Positions 735-19,354 of a stretch of DNA of 19,354 bases are shown piece after piece. This DNA is from a virus (lineage: Duplodnaviria > Heunggongvirae > Uroviricota > Caudoviricetes). A program made the translations under genes and the position numbers. The stretch's first letter is position 1; the number at the start of each line of letters is the position of its first letter. Location of the stretch: the IMG/VR virus record IMGVR_UViG_2695420523_000020; one strand, written 5' to 3'. The notes beneath the pieces are model-generated. The model did no database searches. It was not told where the DNA came from and saw nothing but the letters and a program-made list of their open reading frames with translations.

Positions 735-1811
735 TCAGAGCAGTAAGTACGTTTTTTCTCTCTCATCAAGATACATTTTTGTTGTCTTCTCCGATGTGTG
801 GCCAAGTAGACGCTGAGCAAATTCTTCTCCACATGTTTCTTTGTACAATCGTCCAGCCAGGCTTCTGATCTCGTGAAAAGTTGGTGGGTTTTCACTGAAC
901 TGGATACCTGTTAATTTTCTGGCTGCGACAAATTTTTTTGTCAGGCCATCCGGGTGAATGCTGCCGTCAGGGCTGTTTTTTCTAATCCCGGCACTGATTA
1001 GATAATCTCCCCGGCTTACCAGGCGGCACTGTTCAACTACTGTACCAAGCCGTAGACCAGCGACAGGAAGGCTGAGTGACAGGGGGATAGCAATCATCAT
1101 TCCTGTCTTAATTTGCCTGATGTGGAGACGATCATCATAAATATCACTAAACCGCATATTCGTTATGTCTTCGCGACGTTGTCCTGTTACAAGGGCTAAA
1201 TCCATAGCTAATGGGAACCATGCCGGAAGTTGATCTGCTGCCTCCCTGATGCAGTTGTATGTCTTTAGTTTCAGTCGTTCTCTTGTAACTACTATTTTCG
1301 GTGCTCTTGTTGGCGTTACTGGATTTTGAGATATACGTCCTTCAACAATGGCCTCACGAAACATATCAGACAACACAGAACGCATTGATCCTGCCATTGT
1401 GTTTTTCCCTCCTTCAATCCACAAATCAAGAAACTCGGCAATATGGCGAGTGGTTATTTCTGTCAGTAAAATCTCTCCCAATTTTTCTTTTATTGTCTCC
1501 AGTTGATTTACCCGAATTTTATAAGTATTTCTGGACACTTTTCTCCTTATAAGAATCGTTTTGTAACGTTCAATCCAGTCTGCCATAGTAAATGAGTCGA
1601 ACCCTTTAAGTTTTTCAATTAAGGCAGCAGTAGAGTAGTTTTTGTATATATAGTGATTTGCTTCAATTGCCTGCGCGATTGCATCTCTTCTTGAAATTTT
1701 ACCTAGTGTAAATTCTTCTTTCGTCAGAGGGTTGCGCCAGTAATATGCTTTGTCCCTCCTTCGATATGTTAAGTTTTTAGGCAAATTGGGATCGTATTTT
1801 TTCCGCTGCAT
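735..1811 (-). CDS. int: Tyrosine-type site-specific integrase (lambda Int family), 358 aa
   Basis: ORF translation aligns by eye with lambda Int: N-terminal arm-binding region ([30 protein letters not shown]), catalytic-domain motifs ([10 protein letters not shown]; [11 protein letters not shown]; [18 protein letters not shown] with the terminal Tyr). ATG at 1809-1811. Confidence 0.9.
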
Positions 1812-2164: not shown

Positions 2165-2353
2165 TCACGAGGACAGAAGTTTCTCGCAATTAAAATTTAT
2201 CAGCTTTACTTTCTGCTCTCTGGACACGCCTGCTTCTTTTTTCCCTGAGAGCATTTTTTCGCATTCTGATTTCGTTAATTTAGATTTTGAATATCTTGTC
2301 CAGTTAGTAGGAGTGCCACCTTCTTTTTCAATAGTGGCAGTTATTTTATACAT
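2165..2353 (-). CDS. Small prophage protein, YdaC-like (62 aa)
   Basis: ATG at 2351-2353 preceded by a perfect SD GGAGGTG (complement of 2357-2363). Sits between xis and lar as ydaC does in Rac. The longer 86-aa ORF start at 2425 overlaps lar and lacks an SD. Confidence 0.55.
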   Translation of the reverse strand: MYKITATIEKEGGTPTNWTRYSKSKLTKSECEKMLSGKKEAGVSREQKVKLINFNCEKLLSS

Positions 2354-2540
2354 GAACACCTCCATTATTATTTCCAGTAGTTCGTTTATTCCATCTTTCG
2401 AGTGCTTCTTTTTCACTTCCACCATAGCCAGTTCGGGATTCGCATCCGTTGCATTTTGCCCGGTAATATCCTGAAATTGCTTTCACCGTAACAGATGGAC
2501 AACCACAAAACGGACATGGTTTAACATCGTCATATCTCAT
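2346..2540 (-). CDS. ralR: Restriction alleviation protein Lar/RalR family (64 aa), cysteine-rich
   Basis: Translation MRYDDVKPCPFCGCPSVTVKAISGYYRAKCNGCESRTGYGGSEKEALERWNKR carries the CPFCG...C..C...WN.R signature of Lar-family proteins and lies directly downstream of recT as in Rac. Alternative upstream starts at 2552 or 2579 are possible. Confidence 0.75.
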   Translation of the reverse strand: MRYDDVKPCPFCGCPSVTVKAISGYYRAKCNGCESRTGYGGSEKEALERWNKRTTGNNNGGVHV

Positions 2541-7034: not shown

Positions 7035-7589
7035 CTATTTAATACTCAGCAACTGCTCGACGGTCATATTTTTAATTGCGCTTCGGTTTACAAGAGTCCA
7101 GCCCTGTTTCTCCAGATAAAGGCGGAAAGTGTCCAGGGTACAGACGAGAGCGCCATCAGGAACGGTTTCAGTGAATTCGACGTTGCCGAATTTGTCGAAG
7201 CGAACAACCAGAGTGCGCCCATCGCCCGGAATGATTTTGTTTGTGGGAGTGGTATTATTCTGGCGTAGCTCTGCTTCCATGCGGTCGAACTCAGCGATGT
7301 AGGCCTCTTTGAATGCAGCGGCTTTTTTGCCAGTGAAACCCATCACCAGGAAAACGAAGCCGTTTTTGGTGATTTGGTACATTGGGAGTTTGCGCCCGGT
7401 TGAGTCGGTGTATTCACTTGGCTTAAAATTAAGCTCAGTGAATTCTGAGGAACATTCCAGAGCTTCAATTTTTTGAATGACGTTTTTATGCAGCTTGCGG
7501 AAAAACTCTGCAACTGCAACAGACGTAGTGACAGCACGACCATTTTCGATGGTTACGTCAGGGTGAGAAAGGGTAGGGATAGTAGCCAT
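7035..7589 (-). CDS. Rha-family phage regulatory protein (184 aa from the internal ATG; the ORF is open to 7883)
   Basis: Rha-like conserved block VTIENGRAVTTSVAVAEFFRKLHKNVIQKIEAL...KLPMYQITKNGFVFLVMGFTGKKAAAFKEAYIAEFDRME. Start chosen at ATG 7587-7589 (SD gagg), so the domain begins near residue 10 as in typical Rha proteins. The upstream in-frame 98 codons contain a terminator-like hairpin and non-protein-like composition. Confidence 0.6.
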   Translation of the reverse strand: MATIPTLSHPDVTIENGRAVTTSVAVAEFFRKLHKNVIQKIEALECSSEFTELNFKPSEYTDSTGRKLPMYQITKNGFVFLVMGFTGKKAAAFKEAYIAEFDRMEAELRQNNTTPTNKIIPGDGRTLVVRFDKFGNVEFTETVPDGALVCTLDTFRLYLEKQGWTLVNRSAIKNMTVEQLLSIK

Positions 7590-7755
7590 GATGGCAGCCT
7601 CTAGTGATAAGTTGGTAAACTCACCACCGGAGGTGCAAATCTCATGGGTGGTGAGACGTACAGGGTTTGCACTACCGGTCACTAGAGAATCCGGCCCGCC
7701 CGAAAACGGCCCCATACGCCCCACCATAATCTGAATGTGGCTGCGCTTTACGCAT

Positions 7756-7778
7756 AAAAAAACCGCTTTGGCGCGGTT
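7756..7778 (-). terminator. Hairpin plus T7 on the minus strand
   Basis: Minus strand reads aaccgc-gccaaa-gcggtt followed by TTTTTTT (plus-strand A-run 7756-7762). It lies inside the putative N-terminal extension of the Rha ORF. Confidence 0.4.
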
Positions 7779-8061
7779 ATGCGCTCTAGTGATCATCGGG
7801 GTGCAAATCCCGGCACCCGTTTTATGAGGTGCAGGTGCACTATAATTCCACCCGTTCTGGTTTTCAATAGCTACATTCAACATTTTCTCTCACCTTTCAT
7901 CACTGAAGTGAACTTTGTTGATGCGGTGCCTGGTGCCTCCAGGTGACGTTAACCAGTTAACAATTAACGCCGGATATTTCACCCATAACTCTGCTACGAA
8001 GGACAATAGCTTTTTAACTGTTCCGCGTGCGCTTAGCCGCATTCACCGCATCACAAAATTC

Positions 8062-14687: not shown

Positions 14688-15521
14688 GTGACTGAATTAA
14701 CCAAAGAGAAATTAATCGAAGAAGCCAAATTAAAAATAGCGATTGCGAAATGCTACCCCAATTCAGGGATGGCACGGGTAGAGGGCGAGTTATTCAAAAT
14801 TGCACTGGCATCGCTGGAAGCAGAACCAATAGGTGCTTTCCACATTGTAGAACAGCAAGTTGACGGAACAAGTTACTATATCAAGGATGGGGAATGGCCT
14901 ATTGATACTGGGATTATTGAAGTCTACGCCGCCTCACCGATGACGGTAGTGCTGAACGATGTATCTGGACCTCTTGCTCTTGCTTACAAAGAGCTTACAC
15001 CTGCGATTATGCGCAACCATATCGCTGTATTCGAACGATACGGAATAACCCCAAACGATAGCATTACTACAATTCATGCGCTTCGAATTGCGCTGGATGG
15101 CATAGAGCGGAGCGACGCCATGCTTCATGGACGTCAGCCATGCCATCAAATTACCGCCTCAATGGCAAAAGCTATTGCGCTTAAACTTGGTGCCGAACTG
15201 AATAACGAAGAAGCAGAGATTTTCGCGGATGGGTATAACACCGCCATGCTTCATGCCGAAAACTTTCGGGAAAATAAGAATTCGTCAACCAATAATTTTC
15301 GGATAACCTCGGAAACGTCAACCAACTCTCCGGCAATCCCTGATGAGGTGTTGTCCGCAATCCTGAAGGTCGCCAGGGTTCGTGCAGATTTCGATGCTTC
15401 TGAAGGTGACAGGCGAGGTATCGGTGGTTGTCTGGATGAGGCCGAGCAAGAACTTATCGTTACCATTAACAAATACGCCAGTCAGATCGCAGTAGAAGCG
15501 ATACAGGGGGCGCACCAATGA
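14688..15521 (+). CDS. Hypothetical protein (277 aa), no recognisable family
   Basis: Longest ORF in an otherwise gene-poor stretch. GTG start at 14688 just after a ccgccc-GAAA-gggcgg hairpin. Preceded by ~290 bp of AT-rich ORF-less DNA. Confidence 0.5.
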   Translation: MTELTKEKLIEEAKLKIAIAKCYPNSGMARVEGELFKIALASLEAEPIGAFHIVEQQVDGTSYYIKDGEWPIDTGIIEVYAASPMTVVLNDVSGPLALAYKELTPAIMRNHIAVFERYGITPNDSITTIHALRIALDGIERSDAMLHGRQPCHQITASMAKAIALKLGAELNNEEAEIFADGYNTAMLHAENFRENKNSSTNNFRITSETSTNSPAIPDEVLSAILKVARVRADFDASEGDRRGIGGCLDEAEQELIVTINKYASQIAVEAIQGAHQ

Positions 15522-15595
15522 GCCGGCCCGATGCATTTGCAGGCGTTGCTATAGCTATTGCTTTTCTAGTATATGTTATTTGTCGGTGGGGGTAA
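15518..15595 (+). CDS. Tiny hydrophobic peptide (25 aa), translationally coupled to the 277-aa gene
   Basis: ATG overlaps the upstream stop (ATGA). Translation MSRPDAFAGVAIAIAFLVYVICRWG is a single predicted transmembrane helix. Confidence 0.3.
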   Translation: MSRPDAFAGVAIAIAFLVYVICRWG

Positions 15596-15630
15596 AAACG
15601 TTCGCCGGAATTCACACCAAGGGAGGGAAT

Positions 15631-15735
15631 ATGTCGGATGATATTTCACTGGTAATGGAAGGCGCTCTGGCTGTTATTGCTGTTGTGGGTGTTTACTGCC
15701 TGGTTGTGTTTTTGATGGATCGCCTGGGGAACTGA
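15631..15735 (+). CDS. Small membrane peptide (34 aa)
   Basis: Strong SD AAGGGAGGG 5 nt before ATG 15631. Translation MSDDISLVMEGALAVIAVVGVYCLVVFLMDRLGN has one hydrophobic helix. Confidence 0.45.
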   Translation: MSDDISLVMEGALAVIAVVGVYCLVVFLMDRLGN

Positions 15736-15864
15736 ATTCATTCCGTATGGGAATTCCCATATCGGGCAAAAACGGTTTGCTGTAAAGCGAGAGTTAAGTA
15801 GAATTGCTGCGGGTGCTTGAGGCTGTCTGCCTCGGGCATGCCGCCGTAAGGCAGACAGAGAAAA

Positions 15865-15935
15865 GCCCCAGTTAACATTACGCGTCCGGCAAGACGCTTA
15901 ACATTAATCTGAGGCCATATCTATGCGACACATAG
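15865..15935 (-). ncRNA. Sok-like antisense RNA (approximate position)
   Basis: Inferred from hok/sok architecture: antisense to the hok leader around the mok-like start. Possible minus-strand promoter TTGACC-17-CTAATC inside the mok/hok leader. Exact ends not determinable from sequence alone. Confidence 0.3.
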
Positions 15936-15982
15936 AGATTAGCCTCTTACGGACCGAAAGGTCAAGGAGAAGCAGGCTATGA
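15923..15982 (+). CDS. mok-like leader ORF (19 codons) overlapping the hok start
   Basis: ATG at 15923; its stop TGA overlaps the hok ATG (ATGA). Much shorter than plasmid R1 mok. Confidence 0.35.
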   Translation: MRHIEISLLRTERSRRSRL

Positions 15983-16134
15983 AGCAGCAAAAGGCGATGT
16001 TAATCGCTCTGATCGTCATCTGTTTAACCGTCATAGTGACGGCACTGGTAACGAGGAAAGACCTCTGCGAGGTACGAATCCGAACCGGGCAGACGGAGGT
16101 CGCTGTCTTCGTAGACTACGAATCTAGAGAGTAA
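15979..16134 (+). CDS. hok: Hok/Gef-family type I toxin (51 aa)
   Basis: Translation MKQQKAMLIALIVICLTVIVTALVTRKDLCEVRIRTGQTEVAVFVDYESRE is a clear Hok-family member (close to HokD/RelF as recalled). SD AAGGAGAAG upstream. The upstream leader gcttgaggctgtctgcctc resembles the 5' end of R1 hok mRNA. Confidence 0.85.
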   Translation: MKQQKAMLIALIVICLTVIVTALVTRKDLCEVRIRTGQTEVAVFVDYESRE

Positions 16135-16204
16135 GAGTGACCAGGCGGGAGAGTAATCTCCCGCCACCTCTGATGTGTCAGGCATCCTCAATGCACCCAC
16201 ACTT

Positions 16205-16230
16205 AACCCGCTTCGGCGGGTTTTTGTTTT
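16205..16230 (+). terminator. Rho-independent terminator of the hok transcript
   Basis: cccgc-ttcg-gcggg hairpin followed by TTTTTGTTTT. Confidence 0.6.
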
Positions 16231-16356
16231 TATTTTCAACGCGTTTGAAGTTTTGGATAGTGCCGGAATAGAATCAAAAATACTTAAGTAGCGCGCAGGG
16301 AGAAGAGGGATGGACCCCGAACAGGGGAGTGCTATTTATCTGGAAGGATTCTGAAG

Positions 16357-16530
16357 ATGAAAATCGAAGAATTGCGTGAAATTTTTAGTGAAGATGGCCT
16401 CTATGCTGTGCGCGTTGAGAATGGAGAAGTTATCTACACAACGTTAATTCCTGATGATCATGTGATTTTATCTATCGAGGCATTCATTGAATACCTTGAA
16501 AGGCTCGGTTTCAAGGTGGTTCGCGAATGA
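16357..16530 (+). CDS. Hypothetical small protein (57 aa)
   Basis: ATG at 16357 with SD GGAAGGA. Translation MKIEELREIFSEDGLYAVRVENGEVIYTTLIPDDHVILSIEAFIEYLERLGFKVVRE has balanced composition. Below the ORF-track threshold. Confidence 0.45.
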   Translation: MKIEELREIFSEDGLYAVRVENGEVIYTTLIPDDHVILSIEAFIEYLERLGFKVVRE

Positions 16531-18169: not shown

Positions 18170-18245
18170 GGCCCTTTAGCTCAGTGGTGAGAGCGAGCGA
18201 CTCATAATCGCCAGGTCGCTGGTTCAAATCCAGCAAGGGCCACCA
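18170..18245 (+). tRNA. tRNA with CAU anticodon (Ile2 ileX/ileZ-like, or Met)
   Basis: 7-bp acceptor stem ggccctt/aagggcc, D-arm TAGCTCAGTGG, anticodon loop CTCATAA, T-loop GGTTCAAATCC, encoded CCA end. Close to E. coli ileX as recalled. Confidence 0.85.
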
Positions 18246-18345
18246 TCACAAACCGCCATTAGCTTATCAGGAAGAGCAGACGACACCATAACAGGGTTGT
18301 TGGTGCGGGGGCGGGTCCCCGATGGCGGTCCATTATCGGTATTCT

Positions 18346-18422
18346 GCGTTGTTAGCTCAGCCGGACAGAGCAATTGCCTTCTAAGCAATCGGTCAGTGGT
18401 TCGACTCCACTACAACGCGCCA
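18346..18422 (+). tRNA. tRNA-Arg (anticodon UCU, reads AGA)
   Basis: Acceptor stem gcgttgt/acaacgc, anticodon stem attgc/gcaat with loop CTTCTAA (UCU), T-arm agtggTTCGACTccact, encoded CCA. Confidence 0.85.
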
Positions 18423-19187: not shown

Positions 19188-19324
19188 TTTTTTTGTTTGC
19201 TGTTTATTAAAAACACTTCTGCATGGTGAATCCCCCTGTGCGGAGGGGCGATCAGCAACCAGGTATATGGGATAATCGCGGATTCAGGTGCTGATACTGA
19301 ATTCACCGGGAGGCACCCGGCACC

Positions 19325-19354
19325 ATGCAAGAAAAAGAATGTGCATGCAAACAT
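19325..19354 (+). CDS. 5' end of an unidentified gene, truncated by the window edge
   Basis: SD GGGAGG 8 nt upstream of ATG 19325 (MQEKECACKH...). Only 10 codons are visible. Confidence 0.3.
   Translation, partial: MQEKECACKH

Follow-up and report, generated by a model that had tools for sequence, protein, structure and literature searches.

The closest described relative of the locus presented here is hokW-sokW of Stx2 phage 933W and of the Sakai prophage Sp5 (AF125520). Phage 933W carries annotated mokW and hokW genes and a SokW antisense RNA. The Sp5 copy is an experimentally shown toxin-antitoxin pair that requires RNase III and Hfq: HokW, which is 44% identical to Hok of plasmid R1, arrests growth, SokW expressed from its own functional promoter neutralises it, and the system helps phage release after mitomycin C (PMC8621323). 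In hok/sok (parB) of plasmid R1 the full-length mRNA adopts a closed, untranslatable form, only the 19 mok codons upstream of the hok start are needed, and stop codons placed after that start have no effect; the cases described did not include a stop exactly on the hok start (PMC9841398). Fast binding of R1 Sok hinges on a U-turn motif, YUNR, in the target loop (PMC6562991). Two further points of comparison are the chromosomal hokC (gef)/sokC loci of Escherichia, of the same family and with the same order of elements, and hokD (relF) of the Qin prophage of E. coli K-12. DNA similar to the locus presented here occurs in 4724 of 5426 complete E. coli genomes, at a median of 2 and a maximum of 10 places per genome.

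The window, a stretch of 19,354 nucleotides of IMG/VR virus record IMGVR_UViG_2695420523_000020, belongs to a lambdoid prophage whose hok/sok locus is placed between the replication genes and the Q antiterminator. The prophage genes of the window are:

735-1811, minus strand: integrase
elsewhere in the window: RecT, an exonuclease VIII-like gene and a cI-like HTH repressor
Rha/Ash antirepressor, with C4 and isrK RNAs before it
DnaC-like loader and DUF1627 gene, followed by hok/sok
after hok/sok: DUF1367, YbcO, a Q-like antiterminator and two tRNAs

The locus is an ordinary intact copy of the hok/sok type found in lambda-like E. coli prophages, a system already known. We hold with considerable confidence that it is a complete prophage toxin-antitoxin module under R1-like control; it lies in a typical location, has a full set of elements and is probably functional. 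A reading of the same DNA made from its letters only (the sequence-only reading) had proposed a type I toxin-antitoxin locus of the hok/sok type; the Pfam and Rfam matches given below and about 92% identity to hokW-sokW uphold this assignment. From upstream to downstream, the sense-strand elements are:

15776-15804, plus strand: putative hok promoter, with a weak -35 TTTGCT (15776-15781), a 17-nt spacer and -10 TAGAAT (15799-15804)
15811-16232, plus strand: full-length hok mRNA with predicted ends, beginning with GGGUGCUUGAGG and closing with the T run of the terminator
15811-15822, plus strand: tac (translational activator element), GGGTGCTTGAGG, from folds and R1-type alignment
15863-15869, plus strand: ucb (anti-SD of mok), AAGCCCC, from folds and R1-type alignment
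15911-15915, plus strand: mok Shine-Dalgarno GAGGC (GAGG at 15911-15914), paired with dcb in the trimmed fold
15911-15946, plus strand: Sok-target hairpin (sokT), apical loop CGACA at 15926-15930, from the trimmed-mRNA fold
15923-15982, plus strand: mok-like leader ORF of 19 codons, MRHIEISLLRTERSRRSRL, with its own SD GAGG and a stop overlapping the hok start
15942-15946, plus strand: dcb, GCCTC (GCCUC in the RNA), pairing with the mok SD
15964-15969, plus strand: hok Shine-Dalgarno AAGGAG, 9 nt upstream of the hok ATG
15979-16134, plus strand: hok toxin gene, 51 aa, MKQQKAMLIALIVICLTVIVTALVTRKDLCEVRIRTGQTEVAVFVDYESRE
16144-16165, plus strand: GC-rich hairpin GGCGGGAGAG-UAAU-CUCCCGCC, in full-length and trimmed folds
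16186-16198, plus strand: fbi (fold-back inhibitory element), CCUCAAUGCACCC / CCTCAATGCACCC, the complement of tac with one bulged U
16205-16232, plus strand: intrinsic terminator of the hok mRNA, a 7-pair stem (16205-16222) followed by a T run

The toxin ORF matches the Pfam family HOK_GEF (PF01848) with 81.1 bits against a cut-off of 22 (E=4.3e-23), bearing out its earlier attribution to the Hok family, and the terminator that had been announced behind it is likewise found. From its start through VAVF the protein is the same as HokW and HokD, the differences being confined to C-terminal residues; relative to HokW of 933W only the last 3 residues change. Upstream of hok, the Rfam model RF01794 matches 15811-15981 on the plus strand across its full length (model positions 1-157 of 157), with 105.9 bits against a gathering score of 59 (E=1.5e-23). 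This family bears the name 'sok' yet models the hok mRNA leader. A minus-strand match to the same model (16.4 bits, E=0.31) and weak Rfam matches to ceN48 and CsrC were dismissed as chance.

The 933W locus is 91.9% identical in nucleotide sequence over the locus and is also borne by a lambdoid phage. It shares tac, ucb, dcb, fbi, the GC-rich 3' hairpin and the long Sok hairpin described below, with at most 1-2 bases of difference. Whole-locus identity, the extended Sok hairpin and the position in a lambdoid phage all place the window locus in the hokW-sokW subgroup. The two loci differ in four respects. The mok ATG of 933W lies 57 nt upstream of hok and in its frame, giving the 70-aa MokW, whereas that of the window lies at 56 nt and opens only 19 codons. 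The target loop is CUGAACA in 933W, containing YUNR (CUGA), and CGACA without the motif in the window. The Sok promoter reads TTGCCT-17-TAACCT in 933W and TTGACC-18-TAATCT in the window, and the terminator region following fbi is different.

Plasmid R1 hok/sok has the same architecture and the same order of elements as the window locus (PMC9841398): tac, a metastable hairpin, ucb, the Sok region, the mok SD, the mok AUG inside the target hairpin and dcb, then the hok SD, hok, the 3' hairpin, fbi and the terminator. In both systems 19 mok codons precede the hok start. The R1 mok, however, begins 58 nt upstream, runs for 70 codons and is read in another frame than hok. R1 is also plasmid-borne, its Sok hairpin is without the 17-nt extension, its target loop carries a functional YUNR and its Hok is only distantly similar to that of the window. 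For alignment we used an R1-type locus fetched from an IncFII plasmid. Its Hok is 100% identical to what we take to be the R1 Hok sequence. Its leader is not identical to that of R1, its mok starting 57 nt upstream rather than 58, and R1 coordinates were taken from PMC9841398 instead. The leader element gcttgaggctgtctgcctc near the 5' end of the hok mRNA (15815-15833) aligns with its counterpart in the plasmid locus, the hok SD is identical in both, and each R1 element, including tac, ucb, the mok SD, dcb and fbi, has its counterpart in the window. Together with the full-length RF01794 match, this alignment confirms the R1-like leader that the sequence-only reading had recognised.

Folding of the predicted hok mRNA yields alternative structures that reproduce the R1 switch in silico. 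The full-length transcript (15811-16229) has a minimum free energy of -179 kcal/mol (z = -9.0 against shuffled sequences), and both its MFE and centroid structures are closed: a 12-bp stem joins tac (15811-15822) to fbi (16186-16198), ucb covers the mok SD region, and the probability of tac being unpaired is 0.01. When the 3' end is set at 16168, shortly past the GC-rich hairpin, the MFE structure is open, with a tac/ucb stem and an SD/dcb hairpin whose upper stem contains the mok AUG. Folded alone, the first 50 nt form a tac hairpin with 15829-15842, like the metastable structure of R1, so that tac is predicted to have three successive partners: this segment in the nascent RNA, fbi in the full-length form and ucb in the 3'-trimmed form. 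Unlike for 16168, the open form is not the MFE structure for assumed 3' ends at 16175 or 16185; the trimmed fold thus varies with the end chosen and the exact processing site matters. By analogy with R1 (PMC9841398), the 16144-16165 hairpin is likely the 3' end-protecting stem of the processed, active mRNA.

Comparative analysis shows that these pairings are maintained in evolution. Collection of 129 loci from IMG/VR and GTDB genomes gave 88 unique sequences, which were aligned to follow 70 base pairs of the full-length fold; controls were made by sliding the pairing partners by 1-3 columns. Standard pairs occupy 87.1% of the cells (70 pairs, 88 homologues) against 37-47% with slid partners. 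Changes on both sides are found in 42 of the 70 pairs, and the covariation score of 0.187 is reached neither by slid partners (0.046-0.092) nor by any of 500 shuffles. The tac/fbi stem is paired in 92% across homologues and includes a compensatory U-A to C-G change in 12 Photorhabdus sequences, while the tac/ucb pairs are canonical in 99% (83 homologues). Helices 7 and 8, which form the 16144-16165 hairpin, are 96-98% paired, with compensatory changes in 4 of the 5 pairs of helix 8.

The opposite strand carries the putative antitoxin gene, whose features are:

15861-15929, minus strand: predicted Sok antisense RNA of about 69 nt, the positional homologue of the sokW misc_RNA of 933W, with inferred ends
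15872-15880 and 15898-15906: direct repeat of TTAACATTA, two copies with a 17-nt spacer, the body of the Sok terminator hairpin
15936-15965, minus strand: putative Sok promoter placed by eye, with -35 TTGACC (15965-15960), an 18-nt spacer and -10 TAATCT (15941-15936)

The predicted Sok begins with a short 5' tail able to pair with the region around the mok start, continues with a long hairpin and closes with UUUU. Its fold reaches -29.2 kcal/mol (z = -4.91), and none of 200 shuffled sequences is equally stable. The two copies of TTAACATTA, a nearly self-complementary sequence, form the middle of both arms of the hairpin. G.U wobbles let the arms pair on the Sok strand, whereas on the sense strand the same positions give A.C mismatches and the stability drops from -29.2 to -17.8 kcal/mol. 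A direct repeat in the presumed sok region had been noticed before at 15874-15904; it is real, no chance feature of the window, and lies where it was supposed to, although its coordinates are 15872-15906. Relative to the Rfam model, to R1 and to hokC-type loci, the repeat with its 17-nt spacer is an insertion, conserved in 933W and in most prophage loci of the hokW/hokD type and a trait of that clade. A reading of the repeat as a duplication scar or target-site duplication was dropped because repeat and spacer are conserved across the clade and form the arms of one hairpin.

Both promoters were placed by homology and by eye, at positions that match those of 933W. Each promoter has one weak hexamer, and for this reason a consensus promoter scan of 15600-16400 called neither of them. 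The -10 TAGAAT of hok sits seven bases ahead of GGGTGC, at a distance that is identical in 933W, as is the hexamer itself, and hokC-type and Photorhabdus loci have TATAAT or TATATT at this position; transcription is predicted from the sequence to start at about 15811. The Sok start would lie at about 15929 on the minus strand. The TAATCT variant of the Sok -10 is found also in Photorhabdus and other loci, and the Sok -35 overlaps the hok SD on the opposite strand.

By analogy with R1, the locus would work as follows. The weak promoter would yield a hok mRNA of about 420 nt, inert when new, with tac held by fbi and ucb lying over the mok ribosome-binding site. Slow 3' trimming to the 16144-16165 hairpin would strip fbi, tac would then pair with ucb, and the mok SD, left in the weaker SD/dcb hairpin, would make the mRNA both translatable and a target for Sok. 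As long as the unstable Sok of about 69 nt (from 15929 to 15861) is present, it would pair at the mok start and block mok translation; in related systems such pairing also triggers RNase III cleavage. Once Sok is lost, the 19-codon mok would be translated, ribosomes would terminate at the UGA of AUGA and start on hok, and the product would be Hok, a 51-aa membrane toxin. Initiation of hok by termination-reinitiation at AUGA is the most likely form of this coupling. Candidate roles of the module are prophage maintenance, phage exclusion, or lysis or release upon induction (reported for hokW-sokW).

The mok frame is one of the points in which the window locus departs from 933W. As the sequence-only reading had described, mok counts 19 codons (ATG at 15923) and ends on the hok ATG: its stop TGA at 15980-15982 shares bases with the ATG at 15979-15981, forming ATGA; unlike in R1, the hok coding region is otherwise not overlapped. 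Relative to 933W, two small changes together bring the mok start one base closer to hok, to 56 nt instead of 57: the target hairpin has lost 2 nt from its apical loop (CTGAACA to CGACA), and the small hairpin that follows has gained 1 nt (GGCAAGG to GGTCAAGG). Both fall within hairpins or lengthen them and break none. A start 57 nt upstream, in frame with hok and giving the 70-aa MokW/MokC form, is found in the large majority of the 88 unique loci; seven have the 58-nt arrangement of R1 (taking the R1 coordinates of PMC9841398), and six have the 56-nt, 19-codon ATGA form. The last class comprises the window, two further loci (L010 and L002), a MAG, and the hokC-type loci from E. ruysiae and E. 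whittamii, in which the same frame arose separately. Chromosomal hokC/sokC loci of Escherichia have no extended Sok hairpin and encode another Hok subtype (80% identity). All three mok frames (56, 57 and 58 nt) occur because hairpin loops have gained or lost 1-2 nt without damage to the RNA structure. The survey agrees with the published view that translation of mok up to the hok start matters and not the Mok product, and annotators should be aware that the 70-aa 'mokW' protein is not a conserved feature.

The 19-codon allele is common. The 80 nt between the mok SD and the start of hok, both included, recur at 99% identity or more in 777 E. coli records, most of which have an intact hok, and the exact 36-nt target hairpin occurs in at least 120 IMG/VR contigs. 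Among 106 complete IMG/VR loci fetched with this hairpin, the mok frame has 19 codons in 104 and the 51-aa Hok is intact in about 98 (some 92%); in 76 of them Hok is identical to K-12 HokD. The locus is 95.9% identical to that in a prophage of E. coli C325, the 531-nt region has no match above 96% among RefSeq complete genomes, and one other IMG/VR contig (L006) is identical across the 450-nt region compared. The allele of the window is a mosaic of common segments, and the RefSeq result therefore does not speak against an origin in E. coli. We conclude that the short mok is a common natural allele and probably a working one. The word 'truncated', applied to it earlier as a hint of decay, is not borne out by an allele that is widespread and mostly linked to an intact hok, and the R1 genetics agree. 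Since the locus is a standard complete prophage module, the 'truncated mok' is no ground for calling it a pseudogene.

The target hairpin is kept in all 46 unique variants despite widely differing upper stems and loops, and YUNR is present just after the mok AUG in 29 of these 46. The motif is absent from the 5-nt loop CGACA of the window, the shortest among the hairpins compared, and from the loops of the other 19-codon alleles. As YUNR is not universal in the family, its absence does not exclude membership. The missing U-turn motif in a common allele raises a small question on how Sok finds its target; with the frame survey, it is the only mildly new point of the analysis.

Other interpretations of the locus deserve consideration. 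A decayed HokD-like copy had been left as an option. On one such reading the locus would be of the K-12 hokD/relF kind: a hok ORF without leader, mok or sok of its own, any expression coming through a neighbouring operon. Similar E. coli genomic DNA is usually annotated as hokD and the NCBI pipeline calls close relatives 'HokD'. The Qin copy, likewise situated in a prophage, has nearly the same toxin, from which the window protein departs at the C-terminal end only, and shares the 3' UTR including fbi and the terminator. Alignment refutes this identity. In the K-12-type copy (L091) no similarity remains once the hok SD is passed in the upstream direction, and tac, ucb, mok and the sok region are missing, whereas the window has the whole leader from tac to dcb and matches the Rfam leader model in full; it is therefore the complete form and not a hokD-like remnant. 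The upstream neighbours in the window are small hypothetical ORFs and a DUF551-type gene, with no relBE-like genes upstream of hok/sok, and the K-12 reading is left with practically no chance of being correct. Hardly more credible is the idea that the hok mRNA and Sok serve mainly as prophage regulatory RNAs acting on other targets, the toxin being secondary. The window is rich in prophage sRNAs (Rfam finds RalA, C4, isrK and STnc100), but the analysis turned up nothing in favour of such a role, the Hok ORF is intact and conserved across lineages and HokW is toxic and neutralised by SokW (PMC8621323).

A decaying or silent copy, in which the loop deletion and the insertion uncoupled or weakened regulation and left a relic on its way to loss, is improbable in our view. 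The 56-nt class is a minority of the unique loci, its loop is the shortest seen and devoid of YUNR, hok is broken in about 6-8 of the 106 carriers of the allele, and intact chromosomal hokA, hokB and hokC mediated no post-segregational killing when tested (10.1101/2025.08.07.668861). Against it stand the remaining elements, all intact and covarying, the abundance of the allele with a mostly intact Hok, the separate origin of the frame in E. ruysiae and E. whittamii, and the dispensability of distal mok in R1 (PMC9841398). We would sooner entertain, although we still consider it unlikely, that the short-loop, 19-codon allele is a functionally distinct hok/sok regulatory variant. The hok start would then depend purely on termination-reinitiation at AUGA, neither a Mok-Hok fusion (the in-frame 70-aa MokW/MokC) nor a long Mok peptide would be made, and Sok would have to recognise a 5-nt loop without the U-turn motif. 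Taken with the high variability of the upper stem and loop of the target hairpin among co-resident copies, such a variant could point to selection for separate classes of Sok specificity, which would limit cross-talk between hok loci, of which a single E. coli genome has up to 10. We privilege the reading of the locus as a standard hok/sok module with R1-like control.

The coding sequence of hok contains one additional structure:

16112-16126, plus strand: hairpin with stem UAGA/UCUA and loop CUACGAA around Tyr47 (UAC, 16117-16119), present in the MFE structure

The sequence UACG at Tyr47 is invariant across the 88 homologues, and the hairpin looks like a TadA A-to-I editing site that would recode Tyr to Cys. 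Editing of the hokB, hokC, hokD and hokE mRNAs is mentioned, as work cited, in 10.1101/2025.08.07.668861.

In the Sok-target hairpin, the upper part of the stem and the loop (window loop 15926-15930; columns ~160-195 of the locus alignment A2) are highly diverse among prophage hok loci that are otherwise near-identical, with 46 unique variants of the hairpin in 83 sequences. Copies of hok that reside in the same genome also differ in this element, as do loci L084, L087 and L089 of Shigella flexneri SFBU1023. This diversity might correspond to Sok specificity classes that restrict cross-talk.

The mok frame was compared at an IncFII plasmid hok locus:

NZ_CP128973.1 32150-33005, L130, IncFII plasmid hok locus

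The Hok encoded there shares 100% identity with Hok of R1, and the sole RefSeq annotation at the locus is a 'Hok family toxin' CDS of 33 codons. The L130 mok ATG lies 57 nt upstream of hok and in frame with it, versus a published mok start 58 nt upstream of hok in R1 (PMC9841398), so that the mok frame is variable even between R1-type plasmid loci.

Within the hok coding region a short hairpin is predicted around the codon for Tyr47:

16112-16126 (+), putative TadA-site hairpin, predicted fold with a 4-bp stem UAGA/UCUA and a 7-nt loop CUACGAA
16117-16119 (+), Tyr47 codon UAC of hok, within the CUACGAA loop

The UACG motif is invariant in the aligned hok loci (88/88). The CUACGAA loop is the same as the anticodon loop of tRNA-Arg2, the natural substrate of TadA. 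A-to-I editing by TadA that changes this Tyr to Cys was reported for the hokB/C/D/E mRNAs (10.1101/2025.08.07.668861). The predicted hairpin and the invariant UACG fit this reported recoding.

Two small hydrophobic ORFs are found directly upstream of hok, in a region annotated in E. coli genomes as 'hypothetical protein' and 'DUF551 domain-containing protein':

15518-15595 (+), 25 aa, MSRPDAFAGVAIAIAFLVYVICRWG, ATG overlapping the stop codon of a 277-aa ORF that precedes it
15632-15735 (+), 34 aa, MSDDISLVMEGALAVIAVVGVYCLVVFLMDRLGN, preceded by a strong GGGAGGG ribosome-binding site

The prophage that carries hok/sok has a second, predicted type I toxin-antitoxin module at 2165-2425:

2169-2347 (+), RalA antitoxin sRNA (Rfam RF02694, 219 bits)
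2165-2425 (-), ORF opposite RalA, candidate RalR-type toxin gene

The minus-strand ORF may code for a RalR-type toxin, like that of the Rac prophage.

Two RNA matches lie within an antirepressor ORF:

7035-7883 (-), Rha/Ash antirepressor, longest ORF called, with C4 and isrK in its 5' part
within 7644-7832 (-), C4 antisense RNA (RF01695, 78 bits)
within 7644-7832 (-), isrK (RF01394, 69 bits)

Together they form a P1/P7-style antisense-controlled antirepressor module within a lambdoid prophage.

Small RNA and tRNA genes are also present:

463-607, convergent sRNA pair SraC/RyeA (-) and SdsR/RyeB (+), adjoining the integrase gene (735-1811)
18170-18419 and 19192-19348, two tRNA genes directly downstream of the Q-like gene, then an STnc100 sRNA match (107 bits)

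Since the sRNA pair adjoins the integrase gene, the prophage may have inserted next to the ryeA/ryeB locus. The arrangement downstream of the Q-like gene resembles the tRNA cluster close to Q in Stx-type lambdoid phages.
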